Below, one piece after another: positions 4,397-61,282 of a stretch of DNA of 64,000 nt (its first letter is position 1; every line of letters starts with the position of its first letter). The DNA is taken from IMG/VR virus record IMGVR_UViG_3300027770_000036. One strand, 5' to 3'. This DNA is from an uncultured virus (IMG/VR IMGVR_UViG_3300027770_000036) (taxonomy: Duplodnaviria; Heunggongvirae; Uroviricota; Caudoviricetes). The notes under the pieces are model-generated. The model was not told the origin of the DNA. It ran no database searches and saw only the letters and a list, made by a program, of their open reading frames with translations. Both the position numbers and the translations under genes were made by a program.

Positions 4397-5167
4397 CTAT
4401 ACTATTGATTGTAGGGACTGTCCTATTAACTCTACTCTAAGCCCCGGTAAAGCACTATCTGGGTAGATTCTTAATATAGTATCGTTAGCTAAGTATGTAC
4501 CTACTACTATCTTAAAGTCACCGTACTCATCAGGAGCTACATTATTTATAGTTTTAATAAACCTAGGAGTTACAAAGGAGGATGGGTTCTCTCTTCTCTT
4601 AAACAAAGGGTCTCCAACTACGTCCACTCTTATGTCTGTACCGTCGTTCTTTATAACTACGCCGTCCTCTCCTATGAGCCACACATCTCCACTTAAATAA
4701 TTTCCACTCGAGTCCTTTATAGCTGTCACATATCCAGATGGCATAGGAGTTATAACAGACGTAACAAACTCTGCACTTTTTCTAAATGGGTGTGATCCCA
4801 GAGTCCATGACTGCAGAAAAGATAAAGCTACTGGATCAACCACCATAAGGCCAGCCTGCCTTCCTGCTGCATCCTCAAACCTTATTACCTCAGGTATATC
4901 AAAGGGGTCTACGTCAGCGTAGGCTGCAGTAGTGGAGACGTCTCCAACATTTAATCTTACACGCTTATTAGGGGAGGAGTAAACCTCTGCGCTAGTTAGA
5001 TACAGCCTAGAGCTCCAGTTTATGATGTAAAAAGAAGCATCATATACGGCTTCTTTAGAGAAGTATAAATTACTGGAGGTCGTTAACGTACTAGTGTCCG
5101 TGAAGGGATACTTAGTGGGCTTATTCTGATCTCTCCACTCCTGTCCGTATTCTCTTTGAAGTCCCAT
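4397..5167 (-). CDS. Baseplate/fibre-associated protein, paralogue family member
   Basis: 256 aa; EWRDQN...KYPF, LSGDVWL and IKTINNVAPDEYGDF motifs. Confidence 0.6.
   Translation of the reverse strand: MGLQREYGQEWRDQNKPTKYPFTDTSTLTTSSNLYFSKEAVYDASFYIINWSSRLYLTSAEVYSSPNKRVRLNVGDVSTTAAYADVDPFDIPEVIRFEDAAGRQAGLMVVDPVALSFLQSWTLGSHPFRKSAEFVTSVITPMPSGYVTAIKDSSGNYLSGDVWLIGEDGVVIKNDGTDIRVDVVGDPLFKRRENPSSFVTPRFIKTINNVAPDEYGDFKIVVGTYLANDTILRIYPDSALPGLRVELIGQSLQSIV
4933..4946. repeat. Dispersed palindrome TGGAGACGTCTCCA (perfect)
   Basis: agTGGAGACGTCTCCAac, inside a CDS. Confidence 0.9.
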
Positions 5168-5175
5168 GCCGCCCC

Positions 5176-6939
5176 CTATGCTACAAAGAAATATGAAAAG
5201 GTAGGTTTACCGGTTATAGTCCCTACTCCGCAATAATTGCTTGCTCCGCTATTAGGGGCGTAGACTTCTACACTTTCTATAATGCCTGCTTCTATAGAGG
5301 TATAATAACCTGGGTATGGAGTACTGTGTAACTCTGTCCACAAAGAAGAGCTAACAGTAGTGTCCGTCCAATAGTTTTCAGCCGTGTACATTCTGAGCTT
5401 ATACTTAATTCCTCCCGCTGCTACATCTGCAGTGTCTTTTTGAAAGTCAAGAGAATACCATTCCCCTGGCATTATTCCACTTATGGCCAAGCTAGCTGCC
5501 AAGACTTCAAACGAAAACCCATTCCAATAAAGTATCTTTAAGGTCTTAGTGGAGAAGTCTATAGCCCCTAAAAGGTAAGTCTTAACATACTTATCACAAC
5601 TCGAGACGTAAGCTGTAGCGAAGTCTAAAGCAACCCCTCCCGACCCTAGAGACGATAAGGGACTAAACATTAAAGTTACTGACGCTCTTGCCCCTGTTGT
5701 AAATGTAGATATGTTTTTAGCAAATGAATGGTCATAGGCGGCGTGGTCGTTCCATATGGCCAACGACCTCGATCCCGGGCTTGTAACTATCCACCCGTCT
5801 GTGCCCCAGTCTTCAGGGAAGCCTCTATCGTATACTGATGTAGCATACTCAAACCCGCCTTTAACGCTCTCCATCCTATATGGTGACGGATCTCCGGGGT
5901 CTCCGACCAGGGGGTCTATGTAGGGCAGAGTAGTCAAGTCAACGTGCGAGATTGATAAGCTCTGATCAGCATCTATAAGATTTGAAGTCTCTGCTGTAGT
6001 ATCTTGATCGCCTTCAGCGGCAGCCACGGCCGCACATATGTCAGAATACTCATTAGGTAAATTACCTTCGCTGTCAGGAAGGTAGTCGTTGCTAGTACAG
6101 GCCTCAGCTAGCCCTAAGGGCATCTCCAGAGCTATACCTACCAACACGCTGTCCACTATTTCTTTTTGGCGTAAGCCGTTTTGCGAGAAGTTAATATTTA
6201 TATTTCCATTACAGTCTGGATAAATGTCATTTATGTATTCAACACTCTCCTTCATGCACGACTCGCTTTCAGGCTTGCCTTGGCACTTTCCTACGTACTT
6301 CTTAAATATGCTAGAAGTAGACGACTGGTTTTCAAGCCGGAAAACCATGGCATCAGTTGTTCCAACCCCCTCTATGTACCTGCTCTCTTTTGTTATTTTT
6401 AAATCGCCTATGCCTCTTAGAGTTATGTCTTTAGTGAGCTTAGCTTGGTTATCCAGTATAGATAAAGAGGTAACAGGGTAAGCGCCATAAGAGTAAGCAA
6501 GTCTTGGAAGTAATACAGCCTGGCCCGAGCTACTGAATCTGCCTAAGAACCCTTTTTCTAGGCCCTCTCCAAATACTATCCACCCAAACACTCCATTAGT
6601 TAAAGCCCGTATAGGGTAGGGGGTGTTTGGAGTAACTGGTTTAGGTAGCGATATAACAGCCAAGGGTTGAAACTCTTCAGATGAGTATGAGGATGATGTA
6701 CTTGTTTCGTTAGGATGGTGTTCATGCCCAACAAAGGTTACTGTAATTATTCTGCTAGAGCATGTGATACTACTGATAGACGCAAATCTTCCAGCTGACC
6801 TAGGGAATCGTAACCTAGCATCAGCTATTATGTCATTAGGCATATCAATTCCGGAGTCGGTCTCTCCCGTAGCAAAGTCGTCAACAGGATATCTTCTTGT
6901 TGAGTTAAGGTTAAACCAGTTGTTATTTAATATGGCCAT
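5176..6939 (-). CDS. Baseplate/fibre-associated protein, paralogue with extra C-terminal beta-rich (possible receptor-binding) domain
   Basis: 587 aa; WFNLNSTRRYPV and YINDIYPDCNGNI motifs; aromatic, beta-rich C-terminal ~250 aa. Confidence 0.55.
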   Translation of the reverse strand: MAILNNNWFNLNSTRRYPVDDFATGETDSGIDMPNDIIADARLRFPRSAGRFASISSITCSSRIITVTFVGHEHHPNETSTSSSYSSEEFQPLAVISLPKPVTPNTPYPIRALTNGVFGWIVFGEGLEKGFLGRFSSSGQAVLLPRLAYSYGAYPVTSLSILDNQAKLTKDITLRGIGDLKITKESRYIEGVGTTDAMVFRLENQSSTSSIFKKYVGKCQGKPESESCMKESVEYINDIYPDCNGNININFSQNGLRQKEIVDSVLVGIALEMPLGLAEACTSNDYLPDSEGNLPNEYSDICAAVAAAEGDQDTTAETSNLIDADQSLSISHVDLTTLPYIDPLVGDPGDPSPYRMESVKGGFEYATSVYDRGFPEDWGTDGWIVTSPGSRSLAIWNDHAAYDHSFAKNISTFTTGARASVTLMFSPLSSLGSGGVALDFATAYVSSCDKYVKTYLLGAIDFSTKTLKILYWNGFSFEVLAASLAISGIMPGEWYSLDFQKDTADVAAGGIKYKLRMYTAENYWTDTTVSSSLWTELHSTPYPGYYTSIEAGIIESVEVYAPNSGASNYCGVGTITGKPTFSYFFVA

Positions 6940-8393
6940 TAATCCCTCAGCCCTATTGAGTACGGAGTAGCTGAAGCTATTACCGTCTCATCGGTGTCGT
7001 GTACAGTCTGAGCAGATATCAGAAGGTAGTCAGAGCTATCTCCTTCATCTATGCTTACTATAAATCTTATCTTAGCCGATCTTCCAGGCTTTATGCTGTC
7101 CCACCTAAAAATATAGTTAGGCCATTCGCCTTCTGGGTCTATAGATATGGGGCTTCCGGCTGTGGTCGGATACCAGGTAACGCTATTGCTCTCTAGGCTG
7201 CCCTCCTTACCACCTGTCTCAAAATCAACTTCTAACCTTATAGGGCCTATAAGGTTAGGAGTTGTATTGCAGTAAGTAACTAGTATAGAGGCTATTCCTC
7301 CCGAGGCTGGAAGGGCAAATATACGCATAGAAGAATTTTCTCGGCACGTCTTTCCGCTAAGCCATCTTTCTTGATTGGCGTAGTGCTGAGTCCTTGTCCT
7401 CATGGCAGTGTCGCCTAGATCTTTAAACCTTGTATACAGGTTCTGAATAGCCCTATAGGTGTAGACATAATCGTCGCACTCGCAGCATGGAAGGCAGTTA
7501 TTTTTAAGACCCATAGTGTGATCTGCCTCGTTATAAGGCCTATATCTAGTTGAATCACTTTCTCCTGCTACACCAAACCAGTAGCAGTTAGTAGCCATGA
7601 ACGAGTAGTTTCCAACTATAGACGGCCCTACACCGTTTATACCTTGGACAGCGTCAGATATGCACCCCTCAGGACAGTTAGGGTAAACCCCTAGACCAAA
7701 CCCGCCTACAGCACCTACTTGTATATAATTTACCTTTCTAGTTCCCTCTACGTCATCTGTAGGTTTAATAGAAAAAACTATGTTGTAGCCTGCTACAAGG
7801 GATATATCTCCCTTTAAATATGACGCACCTATTTTAATAGAGTTAACTTTATATGGCTCTTTTTGATAGGCCCTCTCGTCTAGTATGCCGTTGACTGGTT
7901 CAAACGTCTCATCCCTATCAGTAGCCCCATCTCCTATATACTGAACTAGGGTTAGAAAAATTGATGAGGATTCCCAGGTGTATATTACTCTATCGGCTCC
8001 CCACTCTCTTTTTGAACTAGAGGAAGCCAAGGACGAGTCAAATACCACTGTATTAGCGCTATCAGATATTACTATTATATCTTCTTCACGATACGCGGAG
8101 CTGCTGAGTGAGCCACTCGATGAGCTGCTGAGTGAGCCACTCGATGAGCTGCTGAGTGAGCCACTCGATGAGCTGCTGAGTGAGCCACTCGATGAGCTAC
8201 TACTTGATAGAATATATGGCAGCCTAAATCCCGATATCTGTGACACCTTTAACGGGTACGTGTATATATCCCTGCCCTCAAAGGATAAAAATAAATCCTC
8301 GAATAAACCCTTCACGTCCTGTGAGGGAGTAACGAATGGGAAGTCTGCCCCATTAGGAAACACCCCAGAACCGTAATTAGAAGATACAGCCAT
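6939..8393 (-). CDS. Cys-rich baseplate/fibre-associated protein with Ser-rich insert
   Basis: 484 aa; LKGDISL, GINGVGP and NCLPCCECDD motifs shared with 8433..9383; SSSSSGSL repeats. Confidence 0.6.
   Translation of the reverse strand: MAVSSNYGSGVFPNGADFPFVTPSQDVKGLFEDLFLSFEGRDIYTYPLKVSQISGFRLPYILSSSSSSSGSLSSSSSGSLSSSSSGSLSSSSSGSLSSSAYREEDIIVISDSANTVVFDSSLASSSSKREWGADRVIYTWESSSIFLTLVQYIGDGATDRDETFEPVNGILDERAYQKEPYKVNSIKIGASYLKGDISLVAGYNIVFSIKPTDDVEGTRKVNYIQVGAVGGFGLGVYPNCPEGCISDAVQGINGVGPSIVGNYSFMATNCYWFGVAGESDSTRYRPYNEADHTMGLKNNCLPCCECDDYVYTYRAIQNLYTRFKDLGDTAMRTRTQHYANQERWLSGKTCRENSSMRIFALPASGGIASILVTYCNTTPNLIGPIRLEVDFETGGKEGSLESNSVTWYPTTAGSPISIDPEGEWPNYIFRWDSIKPGRSAKIRFIVSIDEGDSSDYLLISAQTVHDTDETVIASATPYSIGLRD
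8098..8198. repeat. 24-bp perfect tandem repeat x4 encoding SSSSSGSL
   Basis: Unit gagctgctgagtgagccactcgat. Confidence 0.95.
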
Positions 8394-9405: not shown

Positions 9406-11190
9406 TTATGTAAGGACCGCCACGACCTCTATAATTCCTACTTCTCCCGCATACCCGTCTCCGGCTGCTCGGCTTAGAGTAAAAAATACTATATCCTGCC
9501 CGTCTACCGTCTCCGCCGCGCTATCTACGCTTATATACTCATCTGCGTCTACAGCATGAGCTGTACTAATCGTAAGCGCGCTATCGGACGTAGGCAGTGC
9601 AACTACGCCGGCTCCAACAGGATTAGGCAGAATTCTATAGGTAGCTGTAAGCGATGGCAGAGTTCCAGCTGTCCTTCCTAATATTCTTAACCTTAGCTTT
9701 ATTTCAGGAGAAGCGGATAGGGTGGAAGCATTAGGGACTAACACCTTAAGCCTTATAGAGCTAGCCTGAGAAGGAGGGAATGCAAGATACATTATTTCTT
9801 GATAGTATCTTTCTTTAGCGTCACTTAGCCTTACAACCTGGGGCTGCAAGAATCTTTCTGACGATTCAAGGCTTGAAGCTATTGTTACTACGCCCTGATG
9901 AATGGTGTCGCCATCTGAAACCCGGCTATGCGTCGATGTTAGAGTTATGCTGTTATCGGCAGCAACTATGCCCTCAATAACTCTGCCCCTTTGGAACTTA
10001 TTAGTCACAACCTCTTTGAATACCAAAGAACCTGTAGTGGTATCGTTTGATACGGCTAGGGCCAAATCTAGATCTATTTTAAGTGGGCCTGTGTTTGCAG
10101 CCTTGTTGTCATAACACCCAATAACAGATAGGCCAGAGCCTGATACAGCATCTAAGCTTGTTACAACAGTTTTCTCGTTTCCATATGCTGTTTTTGAAAA
10201 CCTTAATATTAATTTTCTTGATATGTCTCTAGGGCACTCAGGCAAGGATCCCTGAGCCATTGAAGAGGAGCCTAAGTAGTTAGACCACGGAACATCTTCA
10301 TGGCAGTCAGACATCCACCATATACCTATATTATCAATCGCTACCAGTCCGGTAGTCCCTGTGGGCAGCTCAACTCCATTACCATCCGTATCTCCTCTGA
10401 ATAAGGTTATACTTGCGGCCTCAACTGGCATAGGAGGAAATACATTGTACAGAGCTTGATGCTCTTTCAAGTTATAACCGAAGGCCGCTCCCGTAGGAGC
10501 TAAGCCGTTAAACGAGCTATGCCCAGCAGGTAGCCATCCTTTTATTCCGTCATCTACGTTTATTATTGTGTAGGTTCCTCCTGCCCCGGGGTCAGGGGAG
10601 TCTCCACAAGGGGCAAGACTTAAATCAAACTCGTAGTGTACGTGATTAGAGGGGCCATCCCTTAGCTGGGGTTGTACATAAACGTTTCCACTTCCGTCTG
10701 CATGAAGCACGGCTACGTCTGCTATGGCTGGCTTCTTTGCTAATTTTCCTTTAGTTCTACCAGATAGGAAGTACCTTCCAGCAGTTACGGGGGAAGCGCT
10801 ATCTATGACTGAGGATATATCTAAAGCGTATTTACCAAATATGATTATGTCTGCAACGGAGGAGGAGTGCTTATACCCTATAACTCCTATAACGTCAGAA
10901 AGTGGAGACGTCTCCAAAACTCCGTTTTCTCTATTGAACCTAAACTCTGCTAAGGCTCTTTCAAATCTAGAGGTGTCCCCATTCCAGCACACGGCCATAC
11001 CTATGGTTGCGTCTGCCTCTACTGCGGCCTCAAACAGAATTAAGGATTCCTTGTTCTCAATGCCGTCTATACGGTCCTTAAGATACCTGGATTGGTTCTC
11101 CAGGGCCCTAGTAGGCCTACTGTCTACTCTTGCCTCTACCGATTCGCCGTCATTTACATGTTCTACTTTATTGGTCCAAGATGATGCCAT
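9406..11190 (-). CDS. Putative tail fibre/baseplate structural protein
   Basis: 594 aa; N-terminal RP.RALENQSRYLK resembles the NxPxxxLxNRTxYLK start of many tail fibres; position after the baseplate wedge. Confidence 0.55.
   Translation of the reverse strand: MASSWTNKVEHVNDGESVEARVDSRPTRALENQSRYLKDRIDGIENKESLILFEAAVEADATIGMAVCWNGDTSRFERALAEFRFNRENGVLETSPLSDVIGVIGYKHSSSVADIIIFGKYALDISSVIDSASPVTAGRYFLSGRTKGKLAKKPAIADVAVLHADGSGNVYVQPQLRDGPSNHVHYEFDLSLAPCGDSPDPGAGGTYTIINVDDGIKGWLPAGHSSFNGLAPTGAAFGYNLKEHQALYNVFPPMPVEAASITLFRGDTDGNGVELPTGTTGLVAIDNIGIWWMSDCHEDVPWSNYLGSSSMAQGSLPECPRDISRKLILRFSKTAYGNEKTVVTSLDAVSGSGLSVIGCYDNKAANTGPLKIDLDLALAVSNDTTTGSLVFKEVVTNKFQRGRVIEGIVAADNSITLTSTHSRVSDGDTIHQGVVTIASSLESSERFLQPQVVRLSDAKERYYQEIMYLAFPPSQASSIRLKVLVPNASTLSASPEIKLRLRILGRTAGTLPSLTATYRILPNPVGAGVVALPTSDSALTISTAHAVDADEYISVDSAAETVDGQDIVFFTLSRAAGDGYAGEVGIIEVVAVLT
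10903..10916. repeat. Dispersed palindrome (perfect)
   Basis: agTGGAGACGTCTCCAaa, inside a CDS in the LETSP frame. Confidence 0.9.
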
Positions 11191-14721: not shown

Positions 14722-15096
14722 TTAATTCTCCAGTTCTTCTAGTATAAAATCGACGTCCTTTTCGCTTAGACCCAAGCATATTTCACTTATAGTTTTTTCT
14801 ATAACTACTAGACCTTCTTCTGCCTTCTTGCCTCTTGGAAGGGCTATGCTATTTTCTTTCAAACTAGATCTAACTGCTTTTCTTATTTTAATCTTGTCAA
14901 TAATTCCAGGCTTTCTTATACGCTCGAGCGCGCCTTTAGCGTCGTTCTTACATAACTTTGATAGCTTAACTAGATTAACTATTATAGAAACTAGAGCTGA
15001 CACTATGACTATAGTAGAAACTATAAACCCCTTCTTATCTAGCTCGTCCTTAAGTGCGGGGGCCATAGAGTCTGCAATCTTCTGTGTATACTTCAT
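14722..15096 (-). CDS. Small membrane protein (one TM helix, basic C-terminus; holin-like candidate)
   Basis: 124 aa; FIVSTIVIVSALVSIIVNLV followed by a Lys-rich region. Confidence 0.6.
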   Translation of the reverse strand: MKYTQKIADSMAPALKDELDKKGFIVSTIVIVSALVSIIVNLVKLSKLCKNDAKGALERIRKPGIIDKIKIRKAVRSSLKENSIALPRGKKAEEGLVVIEKTISEICLGLSEKDVDFILEELEN

Positions 15097-15106: not shown

Positions 15107-15120
15107 TGGAGACGTCTCCA
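15107..15120. repeat. Dispersed palindrome (perfect, intergenic)
   Basis: ttTGGAGACGTCTCCAct, 10 nt upstream of the 15096 start. Confidence 0.9.
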
Positions 15121-15175: not shown

Positions 15176-15376
15176 TCAGCAGCCCGATTGTCCCTTATAC
15201 CGCCGCCTCTTTGTCTTGCCTTGAGGAGACTCTGTCGCCGGCGCCTCTGGCACTGTGTCAAGTTTTTTTGATGTAAAACTTGACACTGGTTTGTTTGTTA
15301 GTAAATCAAATGATGCTTTATCTAACTTAGTAGTTTGATAAAGCATCAGTGTAGCTAGCGTTATATACAGCATGGC
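15176..15376 (-). CDS. Possible small exported peptide (uncertain)
   Basis: MLYITLATLML... has a hydrophobic start and basic end, but overlaps strong inverted repeats and has no clear RBS. Confidence 0.3.
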   Translation of the reverse strand, partial: AMLYITLATLMLYQTTKLDKASFDLLTNKPVSSFTSKKLDTVPEAPATESPQGKTKRRRYKGQSGC

Positions 15377-20138: not shown

Positions 20139-20956
20139 AATATTCCCATCCTTCCTCTGCTATCCATTTTACTTTGTAGCTCAGCCCTTAGCTGGCTAAC
20201 CCTGGCCGGGCTTACCCTTAGCTTATTGGCCAATCTTGTATTGTCTAATACTGGCTTTCCATGCATTCCAAAAGTATGCTCCATTATTAGTTTAGACCTA
20301 TCGTCTAATCCATCATACACGAAACCCTTCCAGGCTGCACCGGTGTCCATTCCAGGTATAGTAGTAGAGGGGTCGCTAGAGTTTTCATTATCACTATTTA
20401 CCATAGGGGCTGATGCAGCCCCCTCTGATATACCAGATCTAAAGCTTCTAACCTTACCTATTCTCTTAGCGGACAGACCAGTATGCTCAGATAGTTCATA
20501 GTCAGACGGGTCTCTACCTAGCTTGTCCTCAAGCTCGTTAAACGATCTATCTATATAATGGCTGTCTAGCCGTACCCTCTCAGGCACGTTTAATATTTGA
20601 TTAGCCTTGCTTGATATTCTCTTAAGGCCTTGCATATGCCACATAATATGGGTCTTTAATTTAGACTGCATAGGGTCATATGTCTTAAGCCCATCCAAGG
20701 CCATTCTCTTTGCCTGCAGTCTTACACTAGGCGGCACGTCCTGTCCTACATAAGCTTTTACAGCAGAATCAATTAAAGGCTGCATCTTTAGGACCATATC
20801 ATCGTTGCTTTTAAGATTTTGGTTGGTGGTCCACCCTTGGTAGGCAGGAGCGTACTCAGCCTCAAGCTTTGACGGGTTTACAGGTGCTGCTTTGGCGGGC
20901 TTATTATCCAAAGAGAACATTGTGGGGACGTCTCCAAACTTCTTTTTATCTGCCAT
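20135..20956 (-). CDS. Sigma-70 family RNA polymerase sigma factor
   Basis: Region-2-like DGLKTYDP..SKLKTHIMW, region 3 LGRDPSDYELSEHTGL, region 4 HTH RLANKLRVSPARVSQL. Confidence 0.88.
   Translation of the reverse strand: MADKKKFGDVPTMFSLDNKPAKAAPVNPSKLEAEYAPAYQGWTTNQNLKSNDDMVLKMQPLIDSAVKAYVGQDVPPSVRLQAKRMALDGLKTYDPMQSKLKTHIMWHMQGLKRISSKANQILNVPERVRLDSHYIDRSFNELEDKLGRDPSDYELSEHTGLSAKRIGKVRSFRSGISEGAASAPMVNSDNENSSDPSTTIPGMDTGAAWKGFVYDGLDDRSKLIMEHTFGMHGKPVLDNTRLANKLRVSPARVSQLRAELQSKMDSRGRMGIL
20923..20936. repeat. Dispersed palindrome (1 mismatch)
   Basis: tgTGGGGACGTCTCCAaa in the 5' end of the sigma gene. Confidence 0.75.
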
Positions 20957-29303: not shown

Positions 29304-30559
29304 AAATTTGGCTGTTCCGCCATCACTTGAAGCTTGTCACAAAGAGCTTGAAACTCGTAGTATGCGTGCCCTACTACAGCTCTTGTGCTTTCCATAGGAA
29401 GAAATGTTTCTAATACATGAGTTAAGAAAGGCACCAGCTTTGACTGAAGGTCCTTTCCGGTAAAGTCCTCTATCTGGGCGTCAGCCAGCATTGGCACGTC
29501 TATAGCTCCATAGGTCGTAGATTCGATGCTCTCAAGAGACATAGCCATTCTGTAGGCCTGAAGGTTTCTCCAGTAAAAGTCCGTGCCGCCTAATGCTCGG
29601 CCATTAAAGTCAGTTTGTCCGTCTATAACTATCTGCCTGAAGGCAAGGTCTGACTCCTTAGATGTCAGAGCCCTGAAGGTTACCTTCCACTGTCCGTTAA
29701 ACATGTCATAAGACTTCTTAAACCGTATGGACCCCAATATTGACTGCACGAAGTCGTACCTATCCTCCTCAGACGCCTCTGTCAGGTCTGACTTTTTAAG
29801 ATCCCACCCGCAGTGGGGACAGTTATCAATAAGGCTGAATGGTTGTGCGGGCTCCCTAGTAGGAGTAGGCGCAGGAACATCAAATTGTGGCTCAGGCTCT
29901 TTATACGGCTTAGATTTCATATAATCTAGTTTTGTAGATTGTATGTCGTTTATAAACTCCATACTATCTTTAGCCTTGCTAGGTGAAGAAGGAACAGCAT
30001 TATTAGGCACTTGGGGGTCTACGTAATACGGCTCACCAGGCTCGCCTTGAGCGCCTGTAGACCCTACCGAGCCGATCGGGCCCTCCTTAATAGTGGAGAC
30101 ATCTCCACTTTCTTTAATTGGTTCTTTCTTATTTGGCATAAGTTCTGGAGGCAATACAGGAGCCTTAAACGGGTTGACACTTTCGGTGACAGACTTGAAC
30201 GCGGAATCATGGGCAGCCTTCAAGACCTTAAGCCCTTCCTTATCTTCCACTAGGGCTCTAAGAGTAGCAATCCCTTCTTCTATCTGAGCTCTTTGCTTAG
30301 GCGGTACCTTGTCTAAGCTAATAGGATTGTTAACAGTAGCAAGGATATTGTTGTATAATCGCAGATCCTCACCAGTAGCCACCTCAGGCGGTGGCGGCTC
30401 TTCTGGCTGCTCTTTCTGAAGGCCCCTACTAGATATCTCTTCTTGAACTTCGCTATCCTTTCCTTCCTTCTGTAGCTTAAGGGCTCTTACTTCAAACTCT
30501 GTAAGAGATGATAGTTTTGGTTTATCTGCCAATGGTGGATCATTTTCACTAGTAGACAT
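29285..30559 (-). CDS. Tail assembly chaperone (gpG-like) with long disordered N-terminus and CxxC
   Basis: 424 aa; C-terminal FKKSYDMF..VTFRALTSKE chaperone-like region; CPHCG; position before the tape measure gene. Confidence 0.65.
   Translation of the reverse strand: MSTSENDPPLADKPKLSSLTEFEVRALKLQKEGKDSEVQEEISSRGLQKEQPEEPPPPEVATGEDLRLYNNILATVNNPISLDKVPPKQRAQIEEGIATLRALVEDKEGLKVLKAAHDSAFKSVTESVNPFKAPVLPPELMPNKKEPIKESGDVSTIKEGPIGSVGSTGAQGEPGEPYYVDPQVPNNAVPSSPSKAKDSMEFINDIQSTKLDYMKSKPYKEPEPQFDVPAPTPTREPAQPFSLIDNCPHCGWDLKKSDLTEASEEDRYDFVQSILGSIRFKKSYDMFNGQWKVTFRALTSKESDLAFRQIVIDGQTDFNGRALGGTDFYWRNLQAYRMAMSLESIESTTYGAIDVPMLADAQIEDFTGKDLQSKLVPFLTHVLETFLPMESTRAVVGHAYYEFQALCDKLQVMAEQPNFWKAIG
29303..29309 (-). 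other. Programmed -1 ribosomal frameshift site A_AAT_TTT
   Basis: Frame 0 reads CCA AAT TTT TGG; the -1 frame reads AAA TTT TTG GAA AGC (..LESDRVAS). Confidence 0.75.
30094..30107. repeat. Dispersed palindrome (1 mismatch)
   Basis: agTGGAGACATCTCCAct. Confidence 0.8.
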
Positions 30560-37782: not shown

Positions 37783-37998
37783 TTATTTTCCCTTTTCATT
37801 AGTTCCAAATGTGTGCATCTTGTATGGCTTAGGGGGCTCCATCTGTGGAAACTCTGATCCAGCTTCCTTTTTGTTTTTGGAGACGTCTCCACTATGTAAG
37901 TCTTTTACGTGATTAGCCATTTTATCAAATGTTGAAACATGGTCTTTAAGGGCCATCTTCTCTATGAATAATGGTGACGGTGCTCTCTTCTCCATCAT
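37783..37998 (-). CDS. Small K-x-A motif protein
   Basis: 71 aa with EKRA, EKMA and DKMA; contains a palindrome site. Confidence 0.55.
   Translation of the reverse strand: MMEKRAPSPLFIEKMALKDHVSTFDKMANHVKDLHSGDVSKNKKEAGSEFPQMEPPKPYKMHTFGTNEKGK
37878..37891. repeat. Dispersed palindrome (perfect)
   Basis: ttTGGAGACGTCTCCAct. Confidence 0.9.
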
Positions 37999-38801: not shown

Positions 38802-39097
38802 GGTCTGCTCCTTACCTTTTTAAGGTGATCTGCGCAGTCCTCTCTTACATTAACATTCCAAGACCTAAAAGAGTGCAGATGACCAAACACTAGATGACAG
38901 GTGCTGCAAAGAGTCATGCAGTTACTCTCTTCTAGTTCCTGAGATGCATCTACACTTACTGGTACTTCGTGATGTACTTGTAGATCCTTTTTAGAGCCAC
39001 AGGCGCAGCACGTAGGGTTGGCTCCTAGGAATACTTTTCTAAAAGTAGGCCACTTGCCTGACCTAGAGCTTATTATCCAAGCTAGTAATCTAAACAT
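38786..39097 (-). CDS. HNH endonuclease
   Basis: CCACG...LQVHH..P......N..TLC..CH motif. Confidence 0.9.
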   Translation of the reverse strand: MFRLLAWIISSRSGKWPTFRKVFLGANPTCCACGSKKDLQVHHEVPVSVDASQELEESNCMTLCSTCHLVFGHLHSFRSWNVNVREDCADHLKKVRSRPCHKV

Positions 39098-43187: not shown

Positions 43188-43742
43188 TTAGTAACTGGTT
43201 TTGCCTGGTTTGTAAACAGTCCAGAACGCTAATACGTTATTGCGATCTGATTGGCGTTTGCGCACGCCTCTGGAGACAACTCCAACTATATTAGTAGGAT
43301 TGCCGGAGCCCGCTTCTGCAGCTACTGTGCTGGCGTTGGTCAAAAGACCGCCGTCAGTACTGCTGTTAGAGCTACTCTTGCAACGAAGATATTGGTTAGG
43401 AGCATAAGTGTTACCGGAGTCAAACTCAGTGGTTTCAAGCTCGTAAGAGCCTGCGCCCACCAAACCTGTAATAGCTCCTGTTGGCCCGATAGGGTACCAG
43501 CGGGTGCCACCGGCGTTACTTACATCGTTGTCGGACCCGTTTTGAAGAAGGAAGATAGGCATCTGTGATCCAGTTGCGCCGAGTTCAAACTCGCCGTCTG
43601 AATTAAGGTGCACGCATCTACCTGCATAAACGTCAACCGTAACATTACTAGACAGCTTGGATGTATAGTCCAAAGCTGCCATATGAAACCAACCCTTGAT
43701 TGCATCTAAGGTATGGTCAAACATCTGGCTTGGTACTGCCAT
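43188..43742 (-). CDS. Head decoration/cement protein (putative)
   Basis: 184 aa, Gly/Ser-rich and beta-rich, directly upstream of the MCP. Confidence 0.6.
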   Translation of the reverse strand: MAVPSQMFDHTLDAIKGWFHMAALDYTSKLSSNVTVDVYAGRCVHLNSDGEFELGATGSQMPIFLLQNGSDNDVSNAGGTRWYPIGPTGAITGLVGAGSYELETTEFDSGNTYAPNQYLRCKSSSNSSTDGGLLTNASTVAAEAGSGNPTNIVGVVSRGVRKRQSDRNNVLAFWTVYKPGKTSY

Positions 43743-45652: not shown

Positions 45653-47092
45653 TTATGGTAACCGGTTGTAAGCCACAACTGCTCTTCCATAATTAAACTC
45701 TTGCTCAATAGCAGATGATGCAGCTTTAATCCACTGAAGCTGATGTATAGCATAAGCCTTAGCTAGCTCCATGTGCTGCTCTGAGTATGATGCAGATTTC
45801 TCTATTCCTACGCTAGTTCTAGGTGTATTAGCCCCAGATACAATAGCCCTTCTAATACTAGGTTCAAGGTATGTCCAACTGAGAGAGTTAGACGAGGCTT
45901 GTTTAATCGCCTCACCGGACTGCTTTTCAGTAGATGTTGTCTTGTAGGGATTAGAATTCCTGTTTGATGCTACTTTTTCAATTGTGGAGATGTCTCCACA
46001 AAGCCTGCTGAATATGTTTGGAAGATACTTTTTAACTTCTGAGGCTATCTTTTTTTGGCCTCTAACCTCTAACCAGTTCTCGATTGGAACAAGTATTGCA
46101 GTATTAGCACAAGCAGACCAAGGGTAGTTTCCGCTTATACTGGCCTTCTTAAAGAAGTCTAATGGCTTAACCGTGCTGCTTACAGCGGATAAAAACGCTG
46201 AGCTGAAGTTAGTTGCTGTTCGCTCATATGCCGCTAAGTCTTTAGCAAGTCCAGCCAGCTTTTCTGTCTCGTCGGAAAAAGTATTAGACCATACTCCGTC
46301 TGGAGCTTCTATTCCTGCCATTTCTGCAAGCTCCGCTCCGCCTGCTACATAGAGGCCTGAAGCTGCTTTGTAATGACCTACAACCCAGGCTATTCTATCT
46401 GCTGGTCTATACACATCACTAATATCGAACCATGTAGGGTTAGGATTATCTACGTGTAAAACGTGCCCATCCGCAGCTACCTTTGTTAAGTTACTTCTGC
46501 AGCCGCCGTAGTTACAGTCACTCTCTTCACAATACTCATCTCTGTTTCTAGCTTTGTTTCCGCACCCTGAGCATACGTCATAGGCTACTTTACAAGCCAT
46601 ACTTACGCCCCAGTTGTCATCTCCTCTAGCTATCTTCTGCATTTCTTTATCAGCTAGTAAACCACCATTACGAGCTGCTGCTTCTTTAGTTCCATTAAGG
46701 GCTACTATAAGCTCTACTCGTTTCATTTTATCATTATAGGTAGAAGCCTTTACTAAACCGTAGCTGGCTTTAGGGTCTTTATTCTTATGATTACGGTACC
46801 ATCTAGCGTGCTTTACAAACGTATCATGATGCTTACGGCATGTAGCTTCTTTAAACCCATCACCATTGCGGTTAGGGCCATAGGCCTCTGTTGAGCCGAT
46901 AGCAATCATATGAATAGGTTGTTCACCAGGCTTAAACTCTATACCCTTTAGGAGATTAGCCGTACCAGCTCCGGCCCTTTTTATAAAGCTAGAAAGGTCA
47001 GAGCCAACTAATCCTTTAGAAGATATCTTAATCAAAGAGCTTACTGATTCTCCGAAGTCCTGAGAATGAGGCGTAATTACTTTGATCATCAT
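45653..47092 (-). CDS. Prohead maturation protease (putative) with Cys-rich insertion
   Basis: PNRNGDGF, RNH (candidate catalytic His), GVSMAC (candidate catalytic Ser), DVCSGCG and FDISDV..PAD; position before scaffold and MCP. Confidence 0.72.
   Translation of the reverse strand: MMIKVITPHSQDFGESVSSLIKISSKGLVGSDLSSFIKRAGAGTANLLKGIEFKPGEQPIHMIAIGSTEAYGPNRNGDGFKEATCRKHHDTFVKHARWYRNHKNKDPKASYGLVKASTYNDKMKRVELIVALNGTKEAAARNGGLLADKEMQKIARGDDNWGVSMACKVAYDVCSGCGNKARNRDEYCEESDCNYGGCRSNLTKVAADGHVLHVDNPNPTWFDISDVYRPADRIAWVVGHYKAASGLYVAGGAELAEMAGIEAPDGVWSNTFSDETEKLAGLAKDLAAYERTATNFSSAFLSAVSSTVKPLDFFKKASISGNYPWSACANTAILVPIENWLEVRGQKKIASEVKKYLPNIFSRLCGDISTIEKVASNRNSNPYKTTSTEKQSGEAIKQASSNSLSWTYLEPSIRRAIVSGANTPRTSVGIEKSASYSEQHMELAKAYAIHQLQWIKAASSAIEQEFNYGRAVVAYNRLP
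45985..45998. repeat. Dispersed palindrome (1 mismatch)
   Basis: tgTGGAGATGTCTCCAca. Confidence 0.8.
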
Positions 47093-54587: not shown

Positions 54588-55001
54588 TTAATGTCTAATA
54601 TATGTTTCTTTTACATTAATAAGGCTTCTAGCCGCTACCCCGCTCTTAATAAAGTTAAAGAAGTTTATTAGGTTTCTAACTTCAGCCATCTTATCATTAC
54701 TGTTAATGGAAGCAGAAGTGGAGACGTCTCCACTAACTGGAGGGGCCGCCATAGGGGATGGTATAGCGTCCCTTGGCTGAATAGAGGAAGCCGACTGCTG
54801 ATTTGTAACTGGAGGAGGTTTTATATTAGGAGCAGTGTCTACCGCCTTAACCGCGACTTCAGCTGGAGGCTTACCTTTAGAGGCAGAGGATAGGTCCATA
54901 GGCTTTAAAGCCTTCTGCTCTACTTTAGATTCTGAGCCTTCTAGCTTAAGGTTTTTTTCTGCCTTCTTCCAGTTGGCCCATTTATTAAGAAACGCACTCA
55001 T
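54588..55001 (-). CDS. Low-complexity hypothetical protein
   Basis: 137 aa; TAATG-coupled to the beta' C-terminal gene; contains an 18-bp perfect palindrome site. Confidence 0.6.
   Translation of the reverse strand: MSAFLNKWANWKKAEKNLKLEGSESKVEQKALKPMDLSSASKGKPPAEVAVKAVDTAPNIKPPPVTNQQSASSIQPRDAIPSPMAAPPVSGDVSTSASINSNDKMAEVRNLINFFNFIKSGVAARSLINVKETYIRH
54719..54732. repeat. Dispersed palindrome (perfect, extends to 18 bp)
   Basis: AGTGGAGACGTCTCCACT. Confidence 0.9.
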
Positions 55002-56908
55002 TACAGTACCCCTTTACTATCTAGCTGTGGGCCTATTTCGTTTATGTCGTAGCCTCTTACGGCCCCTTTTCGACCGAAGTCTACAGCCTTTGCAAGAGAA
55101 GGTACATATGAAGTTCCCTTCTCATCACTTATAGCCCCACTGTGTACGGCTTTTAGAGTGGACTTCTTTAGATTACTTCCTAGCATCCTAGTCATCCAGT
55201 CAGGGTCATGCTGAAGATTCTCCAAGCCCCTAACAAAGTGAGGAGCAAATGGAGGAGGATTTTTATGTATTGTCACATCCTTAATGCCAAACTTATCAAG
55301 ATTACTTGCAACAGAGGCTTTTATAGGAGTGCCTATAGTGTAGTGAAGAACGGGCCTTTCTAAGTAAGACCCTATAGCCTGTGAGGGTTTAACTACCCTA
55401 GAGTCATCTCTAGGCTCCCAATCGTGCTCTACAGAATCATAAGGAACCACTTCGTCTGGAGAGAACTGCTTATACTCGTCACTCATCATTACATGGTTTA
55501 TAAGGCCCTTTGACATGACCTCTACGTTGCGCCTATGTCCGCTCATACCCGCGTCCTTCATAGCGTTCTTAAAGGATGATACAAATTGCCTTCGGCCTTC
55601 GCCTATACCTTTATGCTTAGTAAACTGAGCAGGGTTAGGTATGCCTGATGATAAGACGTCTCCGGCTTCTACCATGTCACCTATCTTTACAGTAGGAGTA
55701 GCTCCTGGGGCTATGTAATGATCTATGCCGTTAATATTTAAGAACACACCGCCCGTAGGCGCAGGCTTAATACCAGCTACTCTTCCGTCATTATCAGCGT
55801 GCCTAGCCCAGAACGGAGACTGCTTAGGGGCCTGAACTAATTGATTTAGGTGCTTAAACCCGGAGACTCCACCAGAGGCTCCAGCTACACCGCCAGTGTG
55901 CTTGGAGTTAAGCTGCCCTTGGGATATAGGCTCAGATAGGGCCTGCATAGCGGCAATACCTACTGAGTCCCCGAAAGGCGACATCCCTGATCTTTCTCTC
56001 ATTCCCAGATCCTTGGAATACAAACCTCCGTTAGGACCACCAGAGGCAATAGGGCTTCTTACTACAATATCGTCGATGCCTTTTGCTTTGAGATCTTTTA
56101 GAACTCTAGGAGTTAATAAGGTGTTCCTTTTATAGCCTCCAGCTGGCATAGATAATAAAGCGCCTTCGTTATCACTGTCTTCAGTACTTACTGGCATACC
56201 TCTGTTCTCTAATGACGTAGGATCTTCTGCGTCTTCTCCTGTTACTATCATTCTATGGCCGATCTGATTAAGCTGCTTTGAAAAGAAGCCAGCGTCCATA
56301 GTAGCAAACTTATTATCAGTAACTCCCTTTCTAGCTCCAAAGCTTCCAGCGAAGTATTCAGCAGGGCTTAGCCCTTTTGCGTAAGAGTTAAATACAGGAA
56401 TAGGTATAGCGTTATCGTGATGATCAGTATAAAGCATGTCACCGCCGAGTAAGCTCTTTAGATTAATAGGCTTACCTCTAGACCCGGACTGGACTTGCCT
56501 AGCTAACTGATTACCTGTTTGTTTGGCTTCTTCGAATATGCCCTTCTCTATGTCTGCCTGAGATGAGTTTAGTAGGCTAGATACTTCTTTGTTTTTATCT
56601 TTATCGTCTCTATTTGGGTTAGACATTATTTTAGCTATCTGCATCTTTAGCTTATCTTTAGCTCCAGCGTAGAACTTAGACTCCCTCATGTCCTTAAGGC
56701 CAAACGAGAATCCACCGCTGCTGTAGGATACTGCTCTGCCTACGTCTAGCAGTTTCTTGGCTACTTCTCTGTACTTATCTGGGTGATTTTCTGCGACAGA
56801 CTGCATAAGCTGTTGTGTAGCTTTGCTGTCTAGAACTCTAGAGTAGTCTCTAAGCCCTTCAGGTAGAGCGTCGTTGACCATGATCTGTCCTATCGTGGTC
56901 TTTAACAA
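55001..56908 (-). CDS. RNA polymerase beta' subunit, C-terminal part (bridge helix and trigger loop)
   Basis: TTIGQ..VN..LP, SGSRG, GLSPAEYF..SFGARKG..D....T.DAGFF (bridge helix), QALSEPISQ...KHTGG (trigger loop) and RRNVEV. Confidence 0.92.
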   Translation of the reverse strand: MLKTTIGQIMVNDALPEGLRDYSRVLDSKATQQLMQSVAENHPDKYREVAKKLLDVGRAVSYSSGGFSFGLKDMRESKFYAGAKDKLKMQIAKIMSNPNRDDKDKNKEVSSLLNSSQADIEKGIFEEAKQTGNQLARQVQSGSRGKPINLKSLLGGDMLYTDHHDNAIPIPVFNSYAKGLSPAEYFAGSFGARKGVTDNKFATMDAGFFSKQLNQIGHRMIVTGEDAEDPTSLENRGMPVSTEDSDNEGALLSMPAGGYKRNTLLTPRVLKDLKAKGIDDIVVRSPIASGGPNGGLYSKDLGMRERSGMSPFGDSVGIAAMQALSEPISQGQLNSKHTGGVAGASGGVSGFKHLNQLVQAPKQSPFWARHADNDGRVAGIKPAPTGGVFLNINGIDHYIAPGATPTVKIGDMVEAGDVLSSGIPNPAQFTKHKGIGEGRRQFVSSFKNAMKDAGMSGHRRNVEVMSKGLINHVMMSDEYKQFSPDEVVPYDSVEHDWEPRDDSRVVKPSQAIGSYLERPVLHYTIGTPIKASVASNLDKFGIKDVTIHKNPPPFAPHFVRGLENLQHDPDWMTRMLGSNLKKSTLKAVHSGAISDEKGTSYVPSLAKAVDFGRKGAVRGYDINEIGPQLDSKGVL

Positions 56909-56911
56909 AGC

Positions 56912-57130
56912 CTACCCTCCTAAGTTTATCTTCCTAATATTAGACGGCTTTATACCGTAGTCTTCCAGCATCTTTATGAAGTTAGCGTCACCTGCTGCAT
57001 AGTAGGTTGTTATGTTCTTCTCGTTCTCAACAAACAAGGCCAGAGGATTATTAAAGTTGTCACATACTAGAAGCCTTGTGGCTTTTACTTCAGCCTTGTC
57101 CCTAAATGAGTCATGGAAGTCTAGGATCAT
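56912..57130 (-). CDS. Small hypothetical protein
   Basis: 72 aa, tightly packed between its neighbours. Confidence 0.6.
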   Translation of the reverse strand: MILDFHDSFRDKAEVKATRLLVCDNFNNPLALFVENEKNITTYYAAGDANFIKMLEDYGIKPSNIRKINLGG

Positions 57131-57822
57131 TTCTTCATCTTTCTGAGCAGGTACATAATACCGGCAGCCTTTTCAGCTGTAGGTACATGGCGCATACCAG
57201 CTGTCTTAGCCGGAGGTGCTGCTGGAGCATCTTTTCCTGCCGCCTGATCATCAGGTTGTTTTGGTACATCATCTAGGATGTCGCCAGGAAGATTGAGCCC
57301 TAATGAGGAATACAGGTGAGTTAACAGCTTTTGAATGCGGTGCATATACAGCTCAGCATTACCGCCGTCATTCTTCTTAGCTGTGCCCTTACCGCCCTTA
57401 GCAGCAGACAAGGCTTTTGCCAGCTCTTCTTGAATTACAGAGCGAAGTTGTGCTGAAGGGTCAGCTGGAGGAGCACCACCCATCATGGAAGGATCCATAG
57501 GAGGAGCACCGCCCATCATGGAAGGATCCATAGGAGGAGCACCACCTCCCGGAGGAGGAGCACCACCTCCCGGAGGAGGAGCACCACCCATCATGGAAGG
57601 GTCCATAGGAGGAGCACCACCCATCATGGAAGGGTCCATAGGAGGAGCGCCACCCATCATGGAAGGATCCATAGGAGGTCCACCTGGCGGAGGGGCACCT
57701 CCCATCATAGAAGGATCCATAGGAGGTCCACCTGGCGGAGGAGCGCCGCCGCCTTGAGGAGGCATGAATGCTTGTTTGATGCTCTGTCTAGCTGCTTGCA
57801 GAAGATACTTATTAACTGCCAT
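57127..57822 (-). CDS. Pro/Gly/Met-rich disordered protein
   Basis: 231 aa; KQA followed by GGAPPMDPSMM repeats. Confidence 0.75.
   Translation of the reverse strand: MAVNKYLLQAARQSIKQAFMPPQGGGAPPPGGPPMDPSMMGGAPPPGGPPMDPSMMGGAPPMDPSMMGGAPPMDPSMMGGAPPPGGGAPPPGGGAPPMDPSMMGGAPPMDPSMMGGAPPADPSAQLRSVIQEELAKALSAAKGGKGTAKKNDGGNAELYMHRIQKLLTHLYSSLGLNLPGDILDDVPKQPDDQAAGKDAPAAPPAKTAGMRHVPTAEKAAGIMYLLRKMKK
57466..57762. repeat. 33-bp-type tandem repeats encoding GGAPPMDPSMM (6 copies) with GGAPPP spacers
   Basis: Repeated ggaggagcaccacccatcatggaaggatccata. Confidence 0.9.
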
Positions 57823-58437: not shown

Positions 58438-58473
58438 GCTTGCACCTTTTAATAAAAAGAAGTAACTGGTTGG

Positions 58474-59613: not shown

Positions 59614-59791
59614 CACCTTGACTCCTTGTCTTTTAAATGTTCCATCATTTGAACACACAACACAGCGAGGCCGGATAGCCTCAAATATAAATCCAATACT
59701 ATTAACATTACCACGAATTACTATCACAGCAGTAGTCTAATATTTACTTATAACATTTATCTATATCTATCCGCTAGACCTTAAAGCCTAC

Positions 59792-61282
59792 TTATTTTAC
59801 TTTTTGAGATCCTACTTCCCTTAGCAGACCAAGGAACTTTTCATTCAATTCCTGCTTACGAGCGGCTGCTGCTATAAGGTAGTCATCGGTAGCCATATCT
59901 GGGTTAGCCTTAATGCCGACGTACCTCAATAGAGACTTTAATCTTCCTGGTGCAGTTCTAGCTATGTATCTCTCTATCTTAACCTTTCTGTCTTCAGGAG
60001 GAAGATGTTCATGGCTGTCATATCTTAGAGCCCTGCCTTCACTTTGCGTACTCCTAACGTTATTCCAATGTGGATCCAGAAGCTGAACAAGTTTAGTGCC
60101 CTTAAAGGATAGCCCCTCAGTTCCAGACGGTCCTAGCAGAGCTACTTTTAGTTTGTCTGAGTTGTAGTCGTCAACTAGCTGCTTTCTCTTCTTATCAGAT
60201 AGGGAGCCAGTGAAAGAAGCTGCAGGTATTCCGGCTTTATCTAGGGCTGCTTGATAAGGGTCTAAGCCGGCTTCTATAAAGTTAGAGAATATAAGAGCCT
60301 TGCCTTTAGGGTCTTTAGTAAGCAAAGAGTTAAGGCGCTTAAAGGCTTCTGTCAGTTTTGGAGACCTATCAAACGCAGTTATTGGCTGGGCATTATCTTT
60401 CATGAACGTACTAGTGGACAACCCGATCTGTCTAGGCCCTGTTAGGAAGCTAAACATCTTCTTAGACTCTGCGTCCGTAAGAGGATAATTTAGCTGAAGT
60501 TTCCACTTTAGAATAGCTGGCAGTTTTCCGTATAGCTGGTTATGGAGATCGGTCTGATCTCTATTCATTTCTGTTATTACATCTTCTCTATTGATCTCAG
60601 CCTTGGGCTTAAGCGGAGCAAAGTAATCTACTTTACCTTCTAAGTCCTTCTTAAGCTCGGCTACGTTTTTTAGCTCTGGGCCCGGGGCCTTAGAGTGTAA
60701 AAGGACATTATACCAAGAGGGCTTTGTAACCTTTTGTACATACCTATCTTGAAAAGCCTCTGGAGTTATATCTTTTCCAGTAAGAACGCTATAGGGCATA
60801 GCGAAGTCTGCAGGAGAGTTAACTATAGGAGTGCCAGTCAGCATCACTACTTGCCTAGCTTTTCTTGCTGCTTCTAATAGGTTCTTAGACTGATCTGACT
60901 GAGTGTTTCTAAACCTATGGGCCTCGTCTACTAATAAGGAGTCTGGGTTCTCTATAGGAAGCCCCTTACCAACACCTGTATGGCTCATTATGCTACTAGG
61001 AACAGCAGTAGCTTGATCTATGAACTTCTCTTGTTCTTTCTTTAAGTTAGTTCTTAGAGATGCAGGAACTATAGCTGTATATGGTGTCTTACTAGCTTCA
61101 GCGGCGGCTAATCCGCTCAGAGTCTTACCAGAACCTAGGCTATGGTATAGAAGTAGTCTTGCGCTGTCTTTCTTAGCTAGCTGAGATTGTACCTTATTTA
61201 CAACCCTCTCTTGGTGGGGCTGCAACTGGATACTAGGGCTAATATCCGCCTGCTTATCAATTATGGAGACGTCTCCACTCAT
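59792..61282 (-). CDS. SNF2-family (SF2) helicase/ATPase
   Basis: HSLGSGKT, VDEAH, LTGTP, LIFSNF, EGLS and QSEGRALR. Confidence 0.93.
   Translation of the reverse strand: MSGDVSIIDKQADISPSIQLQPHQERVVNKVQSQLAKKDSARLLLYHSLGSGKTLSGLAAAEASKTPYTAIVPASLRTNLKKEQEKFIDQATAVPSSIMSHTGVGKGLPIENPDSLLVDEAHRFRNTQSDQSKNLLEAARKARQVVMLTGTPIVNSPADFAMPYSVLTGKDITPEAFQDRYVQKVTKPSWYNVLLHSKAPGPELKNVAELKKDLEGKVDYFAPLKPKAEINREDVITEMNRDQTDLHNQLYGKLPAILKWKLQLNYPLTDAESKKMFSFLTGPRQIGLSTSTFMKDNAQPITAFDRSPKLTEAFKRLNSLLTKDPKGKALIFSNFIEAGLDPYQAALDKAGIPAASFTGSLSDKKRKQLVDDYNSDKLKVALLGPSGTEGLSFKGTKLVQLLDPHWNNVRSTQSEGRALRYDSHEHLPPEDRKVKIERYIARTAPGRLKSLLRYVGIKANPDMATDDYLIAAAARKQELNEKFLGLLREVGSQKVK
61264..61277. repeat. Dispersed palindrome (perfect)
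   Basis: taTGGAGACGTCTCCAct at the start of the helicase gene. Confidence 0.9.

Follow-up and report, generated by a model that had tools for sequence, protein, structure and literature searches.

The 64,000-nucleotide stretch of DNA analysed here over its full length (hereafter, the window), which belongs to an uncultured virus of the Caudoviricetes (IMG/VR record IMGVR_UViG_3300027770_000036), carries a recurrent 14-bp palindrome, TGGAGACGTCTCCA, that forms the core of a gap-free 18-bp palindrome maintained by selection on the DNA, distributed with even gaps and retained at the same places in related giant phages. Roughly once per 7 kb, selection has spelled out a single 18-bp word, using synonymous positions and extending even to the encoded protein sequence. 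This points to some process by which the viral chromosome is read along its entire length, with a few kilobases as its reach; compaction, protection, replication or expression of the phage DNA could all be affected by it. We know of no need of large lytic phages for cis-acting sites across the whole chromosome, and no description of such site sets was found in the jumbo-phage literature. Judging from sequence comparison, we propose with middling confidence that the palindromes are docking sites for a predicted phage-encoded symmetric DNA-binding protein that would act chromosome-wide.

The palindrome had been noticed in a preliminary description, which listed six perfect copies (4933, 10903, 15107, 37878, 54719 and 61264) and three copies with a single mismatch (20923, 30094 and 45985). 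Rescanning returned the same nine, and allowing up to two mismatches to TGGAGACGTCTCCA added a tenth, two-mismatch copy at 43271, which had been left out of that list. The resulting total of 10 was reached in none of 100 dinucleotide-preserving shuffles of the window (mean 0.11 matches, maximum 2). Related IMG/VR contigs (G001, G002, G004 and others) stood in for the rest of the genome of the window phage, and orthologous places were mapped by masking each site and then locating it through its flanks. The copies in the window and the state of their places in relatives are as follows.

4933..4946, exact site within gene 4397-5167 (minus strand), peptide V-G-D-V-S-T; lineage-specific, the mapped place in G001 and G002 having 5-6 mismatches.
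10903..10916, exact site within gene 9406-11190, peptide L-E-T-S-P; the orthologous place is exact in G001, G002 and G004.
15107..15120, exact intergenic site, 11 nt ahead of the ATG of gene 14725-15096, which encodes a 124-aa membrane-helix protein; exact at the mapped place in G002, while the G001 and G004 sites lie just ahead of the start of the orthologous gene.
20923..20936, one-mismatch site (TGGGGACGTCTCCA on the plus strand) at codon 6 of the sigma-factor-like gene 20138-20956; the mapped place is empty in G001, whose own site in the same interval is at 28408.
30094..30107, one-mismatch site (central G to A) within gene 29285-30559, peptide S-G-D-V-S-T; the mapped place is exact in G004, and in G001 and G002 the orthologous gene encodes SGDVST at approximately that codon.
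37878..37891, exact site in a small conserved open reading frame (ORF), 37783-37998 (71 aa), that is kept by relatives; 0-1 mismatch at this place in G001, G002 and G004.
43271..43284, two-mismatch copy TGGAGACAACTCCA within gene 43188-43742, possibly a decaying site; excluded from the spacing statistics.
45985..45998, one-mismatch site within gene 45653-47092, peptide C-G-D-I-S-T; the orthologous place is exact in G002 and G004, and the site lies at the same codon (364) in G001.
54719..54732, exact and complete over all 18 bp of the palindrome (AGTGGAGACGTCTCCACT), located where gene 54588-55001 is of low complexity; likewise exact in G001, G002 and G004.
61264..61277, exact site covering codons 2-6 of gene 59792-61282 (SNF2-type helicase); also exact in G001 and G004, gone in G002 (6 mismatches).

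Recomputation agreed with the preliminary description in the gaps between the nine sites (5970, 4204, 5816, 9171, 7784, 8107, 8734 and 6545 bp), in the flanking dinucleotides (every copy has AG or TG on one side, or CT on the other) and in the reading frames, seven coding copies reading G-D-V/I-S/P and one L-E-T-S-P. The copy at 15107 is intergenic, as stated there, and it can be added that the copy at 37878, which lies between large ORFs, falls in the conserved 71-aa ORF.

The anatomy of the full site was derived from a logo over 85 sites in five sequences, a count that includes orthologous and hence non-independent copies. The site is an 18-bp palindrome, A-G/T-TGGAGACGTCTCCA-C/A-T, without a spacer. 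On the left flank, position -2 is A in 72/85 sites and position -1 is G in 60/85 or T in 22/85; on the right flank, position +15 is C in 63/85 or A in 20/85 and position +16 is T in 50/85 or A in 32/85. The two-fold symmetry seen at the outset in the window copies extends in this larger set to position ±9, outside which the logo holds zero information, and the recognition unit is therefore a gap-free 18-bp palindrome, the centre of which, ACGT, is self-complementary in itself. The core GAGACGTCTC was never found apart from full sites. Half-sites (7-8-mers) on their own showed no enrichment, their counts being close to expectation, and a Chi-like half-site reading was rejected on this ground. 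One-mismatch copies are never compensated in the opposite arm. Such a pattern is what a reader of double-stranded DNA with two-fold symmetry would leave, unlike a structural RNA.

That the constraint lies on the DNA and not on the protein, as had been suspected, is borne out by codon-preserving shuffles, in which synonymous codons were permuted inside genes for 500 rounds and intergenic sites were left untouched. The window has 6, 9 and 10 sites at up to 0, 1 and 2 mismatches, against shuffled means of 1.03, 1.29 and 2.51, about one of each mean being the untouched intergenic site; in G001 the corresponding counts are 23, 26 and 27 against means of 4.09, 4.82 and 7.58. The shuffles practically abolish the exact coding sites, leaving about 0.03 compared with 5 observed in the window and about 0.09 compared with 19 in G001, so that this control, named in the preliminary description as one that could overturn its idea, yielded counts far below those observed. 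In the predicted proteins of the window and G001, the peptides GDVS, ETSP and WRRL occur exclusively at the motif or at a one-mismatch copy of it; the peptide therefore follows the DNA and not the reverse.

Among the 85 sites, 35 are read in the S-G-D-V-S-T frame, 22 in the V/L-E-T-S-P frame and 7 as W-R-R-L, and the remaining 21 are intergenic or partial, an over-representation given that non-coding DNA makes up only about 5% of the five sequences. A large number of the coding sites fall where the sequence is of low complexity and enriched in A, P, S, T, K and E residues. Intergenic sites often begin at, or within 6 nt after, the upstream stop codon and often finish 11-12 nt short of the following ATG, an interval that contains the ribosome-binding site. 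Site density is similar across structural and non-structural regions.

The sites are also spaced more evenly than expected. Random placement gives a coefficient of variation (CV) of the gaps of about 0.95, compared with 0.24-0.59 observed: 0.24 in the window (P=0.00015), 0.47 in G001 (P=0.00005), 0.59 in G002 (P=0.006), 0.52 in G004 (P=0.008) and 0.46 in G005 (P=0.0009), with median gaps of 7.2-7.8 kb. A fixed period was tried and rejected (Rayleigh test, P 0.1-0.95 against gap-shuffled nulls). The spacing rule looks like one of no long gap and few short ones, without a ruler.

An exact scan of IMG/VR identified at least 135 loci and at least nine contigs with many copies. The preliminary description had anticipated that the site would extend through the whole genome of relatives and had named absence from them as an argument against itself; the motif is instead abundant there, with 10-26 copies per related contig. 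Counted over whole records with at most one mismatch, there are 26 sites in G001 (190 kb), 21 in G002 (181 kb), 14 in G004 (102 kb), 15 in G005 (102 kb), 18 in G008 (137 kb) and 10 in G010 (82 kb), the last two contigs having been used for site counts only. A control pattern, reversed and non-complemented, had 0 matches in every one of these six records. G003 was left out as a reverse-complement near-duplicate of part of G001, the mirrored site coordinates summing to 99,244.

The window is collinear with G001 at a nucleotide identity of 64-82%. Among 179 mapped ordered pairs of places, with a median flank identity of 74%, the site has 0 mismatches in 120, one in 21, two in 1 and at least 4 in 37. 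Sites are therefore either kept whole or absent, and the earlier expectation that they would be kept at orthologous places holds for 142 of the 179 pairs (0-2 mismatches). Turnover is visible as well. Six of the 10 interior lineage-specific sites divide gaps that would otherwise be 14-17 kb long, at ratios of 0.31-0.49, and the other four lie in a cluster of promoter modules; G002 and G004 are empty in the interval, bounded by two conserved sites, that holds site 20923 of the window and site 28408 of G001, and this interval is among their longest gaps; and G002 has a one-mismatch site 3.1 kb from its lost site at the helicase start. Gaps that have grown too long appear to be refilled with sites.

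The occurrence of the window phage is freshwater-dominated: at least part of a 10-kb stretch of the window was found in 20 public runs from 16 studies, 14 of the 20 runs holding at least half of its words. Contigs assembled from the independent DNA runs X3, X4 and X6 span sites 4933, 10903, 15107 and 20923. The motif is therefore no assembly or cloning scar, a possibility that the preliminary description had raised against itself and that the presence of the motif in relatives also rules out.

Beyond this lineage the palindrome changes or disappears. No near-identical phage was found in INPHARED, where the closest phage by protein is Salmonella phage Arash (35% identity); no recurrent palindrome was seen in the first 50 kb of Arash. 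Two further IMG/VR contigs, G006 and G007, have polymerases 55-58% identical and each share a similar core, about 62-66 of the 224 G001 proteins, and the TGGAGACGTCTCCA motif is altogether absent from both. G007 (202 kb, 62.5% G+C) carries a different gap-free palindrome, AAAAAGTACTTTTT, in 14 copies with a gap CV of 0.40 and a spacing of about 14 kb. This palindrome is A+T-rich and often lengthened to about 22 bp (ATCYAAAAAGTACTTTTTRGAT; for example at 103643, 144100 and 176721), and about half of its copies have an ATG no more than some 15 nt away. In G006 (224.5 kb, 100% complete by CheckV), no recurrent palindrome of at least 12 bp was found and any 10-mer palindrome has at most 5 copies. 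The other palindrome of G007 and the lack of one in G006 indicate a lineage-specific feature, either respelled or independently gained, that is dispensable; this fits a private, phage-encoded reader.

Several sites lie close to another repeated element. In G001, a promoter-like element, CTTAATYCA-N9-GCGTCATAAT, is present at 74548, 75233, 76297, 106711, 107241, 108703, 109366 and 120523, often immediately preceded by a terminator-like hairpin that has a T run and AGCTATYAG, and it probably represents the phage's own early or middle promoter class. The palindrome lies 2 nt upstream in three of these eight copies, each time just past the terminator-like T run; it accompanies 0/4 copies of the element in G004 and 0/6 in G005, and the window has no copy of the element. 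Since so few copies of the element carry the palindrome, the palindrome is not the promoter, though a few sites do occupy an operator-like position; it is, moreover, symmetric and mostly intragenic, whereas a promoter would be directional and lie at a set distance upstream of genes. Two observations were made on neighbouring intergenic regions. In G001, the stretch between a site and the PhoH-like gene (80133-80200) is conserved in four genomes, and a hairpin (ACCGGGTTAATACCCGGT) directly precedes the ribosome-binding site. In the window, the 320-nt intergenic region upstream of site 15107 contains an inverted repeat with a 12-bp stem at 15255-15286 (GTGTCAAGTTTT...AAAACTTGACAC), and in three independent runs (X3, X4 and X6) contigs break off at precisely 15256 or 15286; this may reflect a junction that is invertible or varies between strains, or else a failure of assembly at the hairpin.

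The other genes of the window that bear on the interpretation, or are of interest in themselves, are listed below.

1-3367, minus strand, tail fibre with collagen triple-helix repeats, supported by a Collagen match (E=5e-82) and by tail fibre PHROGs; the ORF extends past the window end.
20138-20956, full-length sigma-70-family-like protein with weak FliA/WhiG and SigB/F/G matches over regions 2-4.
38789-39097, small HNH protein (103 aa) between conserved structural genes.
59792-61282, SNF2-type helicase gene.
61285-63999 and 55004-56908, multisubunit RNA polymerase in two pieces, an unusual split.

In one polymerase ORF, Rpb2_6 (the C-terminal domain of beta) is fused to Rpb1_1/2 (N-terminal domains of beta'); its orthologue in G001 has 1485 aa, and the ORF in the window is cut by the window end. 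Further products include an S8 protease, a baseplate J-like protein and a major-head-like protein. The HNH gene is present in the window, G001, G002 and G004 and not in G006 and G007, and tracks the lineage with the TGGAGAC word, as many other genes do. The sigma-like gene stands among baseplate and tail genes, and the structural block of Arash also has an annotated sigma factor. Over 1-3367 the G+C content is raised (52%) and all six frames are open. Short in-frame tandem repeats occur at 8097-8178 in gene 6942-8393 and at 57485-57659 in the mucin-like gene 57130-57822; the independent run X4 lacks 48 nt at 8097-8146, a copy-number variant. By a greedy call, 55 of the 59 ORFs of the window are on the minus strand. 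About 90% of the ORFs of G001, G002, G004 and G005 are on one strand across 100-190 kb, which is unusual at this phage size; the terminase large subunit gene of G001 is among the few on the opposite strand.

From the selection on DNA, the symmetry, the genome-wide presence, the even gaps, the positional conservation and the turnover of the sites we infer a dedicated reader. The 18-bp palindrome would be the recognition site of a phage-encoded protein, most simply a homodimer, that reads double-stranded DNA with two-fold symmetry. Selection would maintain one site per about 4-10 kb throughout a chromosome that measures about 190 kb, placing it in the scarce non-coding gaps when these are available and otherwise in tolerant coding stretches, in any frame. 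Even gaps and the indifference of the sites to gene class argue for a chromosome-wide action with limited reach, and the reader might cover the few kilobases around each site by spreading, sliding or bridging; the outcome would be the marking, compacting or shielding of the phage chromosome rather than the regulation of single genes. A more specific version, on which we are tentative, is that giant phages possess an undescribed class of self-marking, in which a non-ParB protein loads at evenly spaced private palindromes and covers or bridges the chromosome, for example for compaction or for shielding from host nucleases. Whole lineages would then respell all sites together with the reader, as the palindrome of G007 and its lack in G006 suggest.

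Several points weigh against this proposal. There is no phase-locked period, so the "lattice" consists of even gaps only. G006, equally related and complete, does without such a palindrome set, which makes the feature dispensable in this phage group. A protein tightly bound inside genes would collide with transcribing polymerases. Finally, no ParB, ParA, TetR, Xre, RHH or similar candidate emerged when 51 window proteins and 150 or 122 proteins of G001 were scanned against Pfam and PHROGs; in these scans the first ~63 kb of G001 was covered through the window counterparts, with eight boundary-spanning and a few terminal G001 genes lying outside. AlphaFold2 models of a 154-aa PHROG "DNA binding protein" and of an 81-aa protein were unusable (mean pLDDT 55.9 and 55.1).

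Other routes to the reader gave the following. The profiles PF02195, PF17762 and PF08535 (ParB_N, HTH_ParB and KorB) had 0 matches at E<=1 in G001, G002, G006, G007 and G008, while control genomes did match ParB/KorB profiles; at profile sensitivity a fold-level relative of the ParB/KorB family is still conceivable as the reader. No match to ParA, CbiA or AAA_31, as expected for a ParA-type ATPase or KorA-type partner, was found in the Pfam scans of the window and G001. The conserved intergenic sites are directly followed by genes for a membrane-helix protein, a PhoH-like ATPase and the 81-aa beta-rich protein, none of which is an evident DNA binder. Nine G001 proteins match G007 but not G006, and these presence/absence candidates were dismissed, as none has a DNA-binding signature; 87 G001 proteins are common to G002 and missing from G006 and G007, too many for choosing a reader. 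For the 154-aa protein, searching the PDB by sequence gave no match, and the ESM Atlas gave no lead for the 124-aa protein (best score 0.79). The sigma-like proteins (window 20138-20956; G001 157026-157736, which has no homologue in G002) were rejected because sigma factors are not symmetric binders. The interpretation put forward in the preliminary description, binding sites of a dimeric protein, accordingly stands in part: constraint on the DNA, symmetry, genome-wide spread and conservation speak for it, whereas the protein models that it named (ParB/parS, Noc, SlmA and MatP) found no support in the domain searches of the five related contigs, nor was any ParA- or TetR-type Pfam match or other binding protein identified. 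For this reason the roles suggested there, to organise, segregate, protect or package the chromosome, are conjectural, and segregation is the least likely among them.

The same kind of symmetric binder could instead exert global transcription control, as a genome-wide repressor, roadblock or long-range silencer that times or silences expression on a genome transcribed almost wholly one way, with KorB-OB and the Cluster A stoperators as models. We consider this unlikely, although the strand bias of about 90% and the excess of intergenic sites would suit it, and the three G001 sites 2 nt upstream of the promoter-like element, each past a T run, resemble the OB operators described 4-10 bp upstream of promoters in the available part of a recent study (PMC11790492). 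Most copies of that element nevertheless lack the palindrome (five of eight in G001, all in G004 and G005), most sites lie deep in genes and distant from such elements, and structural and non-structural regions have similar site densities. The site is also symmetric, unlike the oriented stoperators, and the profile, Pfam and PHROGs scans detected no KorB, ParB or repressor-type domain. Cleavage is, in our judgement, rather unlikely: the sites would be cut or nicked by a phage-encoded symmetric endonuclease, restriction-like or of the HNH type, with nicks or breaks that seed recombination-dependent replication or with fixed nicks in the virion DNA as in T5. The gap-free perfect palindrome is like a restriction site, recombination proteins resembling Rad50/Mre11, UvsX and RuvC are encoded in the phage group, the small HNH gene follows the lineage, and evenly spread entry points would suit the even gaps. 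Yet contigs from independent DNA runs bridge 4933, 10903, 15107 and 20923, and among the matches listed no IMG/VR contig ends at a site, the nearest end being about 250 bp away, contigs being weak evidence in both respects; at 103 aa, the HNH protein is small for one that would recognise 18 bp; G007 lacks the HNH gene but has a palindrome set of its own; and the nick sites of T5 are asymmetric.

A host protein recruited by the phage, whether a nucleoid-associated, occlusion or partition factor, would account for the failure to find a phage reader, and different hosts could explain why relatives of differing G+C content (43-47% as opposed to 62.5%) have other palindromes or none. We nonetheless regard it as improbable. 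Across one genome each of 185,579 species, the 18-mer has 7 single hits, about the chance number, never twice per genome and none of them phage-like, which argues against a host-genome site set, with the qualification that only the full 18-mer was searched and the host may be outside the collection. An RNA-level signal, in which a transcribed hairpin is read by a nuclease or binding protein and processes or stabilises long one-directional transcripts, would be in keeping with the intergenic sites that lie directly past a stop codon and just ahead of a Shine-Dalgarno sequence, and every site is transcribed since nearly all genes are on one strand. It is very improbable: the RNA fold of the site is a stem of just 5 bp with a 4-nt loop (about -6 kcal/mol; z-scores -0.6 to -3.4), all 14 positions are fixed, the self-complementary loop included, and mismatches go uncompensated. 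An intrinsic terminator is not indicated either, as the gene-strand sequence after the site is A-rich or mixed, without a U tract, and a terminator consensus scan flagged only 15107 and 20923, solely on the plus strand, opposite to the genes. Contigs from an RNA library bridge 4933 and 10903, which, DNA carry-over being possible, counts neither for nor against transcription. Scarcely credible, lastly, is a recombination linker or selfish spread, in which the 18-mers promote module exchange among co-infecting relatives or constitute a mini-element. The available text on Cluster O mycobacteriophages describes indels flanked by 17-bp repeats (PMC4351075), and three G001 sites are part of a duplicated module of site and promoter-like element; however, with zero information outside 18 bp nothing larger is moving, most sites are old and orthologous, and selfish spread would not be expected to space the sites evenly or to fill gaps.

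Among known systems, scattered palindromes of 12-16 bp, often intragenic and read by a dimer with a role in organising or positioning DNA, are represented by parS/ParB, NBS/Noc, SBS/SlmA, matS/MatP and the centromere repeats of prophage N15. The parS, NBS, SBS and matS sets cluster in particular chromosome regions, whereas the sites described here are evenly spread, the TGGAGACGTCTCCA motif is not known to match any of the respective consensus sequences, and none of those protein families was detected in our scans. The Cluster A stoperators are similar in that dozens of identical short sites, some of them intragenic, are read by one phage protein. They are, however, asymmetric, oriented with transcription and serve lysogeny via the immunity repressor; the site here is symmetric, and no integrase or repressor-type family was matched in the Pfam and PHROGs scans.

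With 14-18 bp and 9-26 copies per sequence, the sites correspond to the dispersed palindromes of 13-16 bp typical of ParABS and KorB-OB, and KorB-OB on the IncP plasmid RK2 is the closest understood mechanism. According to the available part of McLean et al. (2025, PMC11790492), OB is a dispersed palindromic operator, partly promoter-adjacent and partly remote, which is read by a KorB dimer that acts at a distance by sliding. The defining protein family was searched for here and not found: neither a domain of the ParB_N, HTH_ParB or KorB type nor a partner resembling KorA or ParA was detected, the sequence differs, and our sites are mostly intragenic and belong to an apparently lytic phage.

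The closest printed case is the dyad repeat of the Cluster O mycobacteriophages, of which Corndog has 34 copies of 17 bp (Cresawn et al. 2015, PMC4351075). That repeat has a 7-3-7 structure with an A/T spacer, unlike the gap-free 18-mer of other sequence described here, and occurs about every 2 kb in a genome of about 70 kb, in another host and phage group; even spacing is not reported in the available part of that paper (PMC4351075), and here most sites are intragenic. The likeness is otherwise extensive, since in both cases an invariant inverted repeat is present genome-wide in tens of copies, between and inside genes, mostly at the same places in relatives and with single-base losses, as far as the available text describes them (PMC4351075). 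Its authors, in the same text, suggested a dimeric binding protein, thought ordinary promoter regulation unlikely and left the function unexplained (PMC4351075), and a symmetric reader acting chromosome-wide, as proposed here for the giant phages, would be in line with that suggestion.

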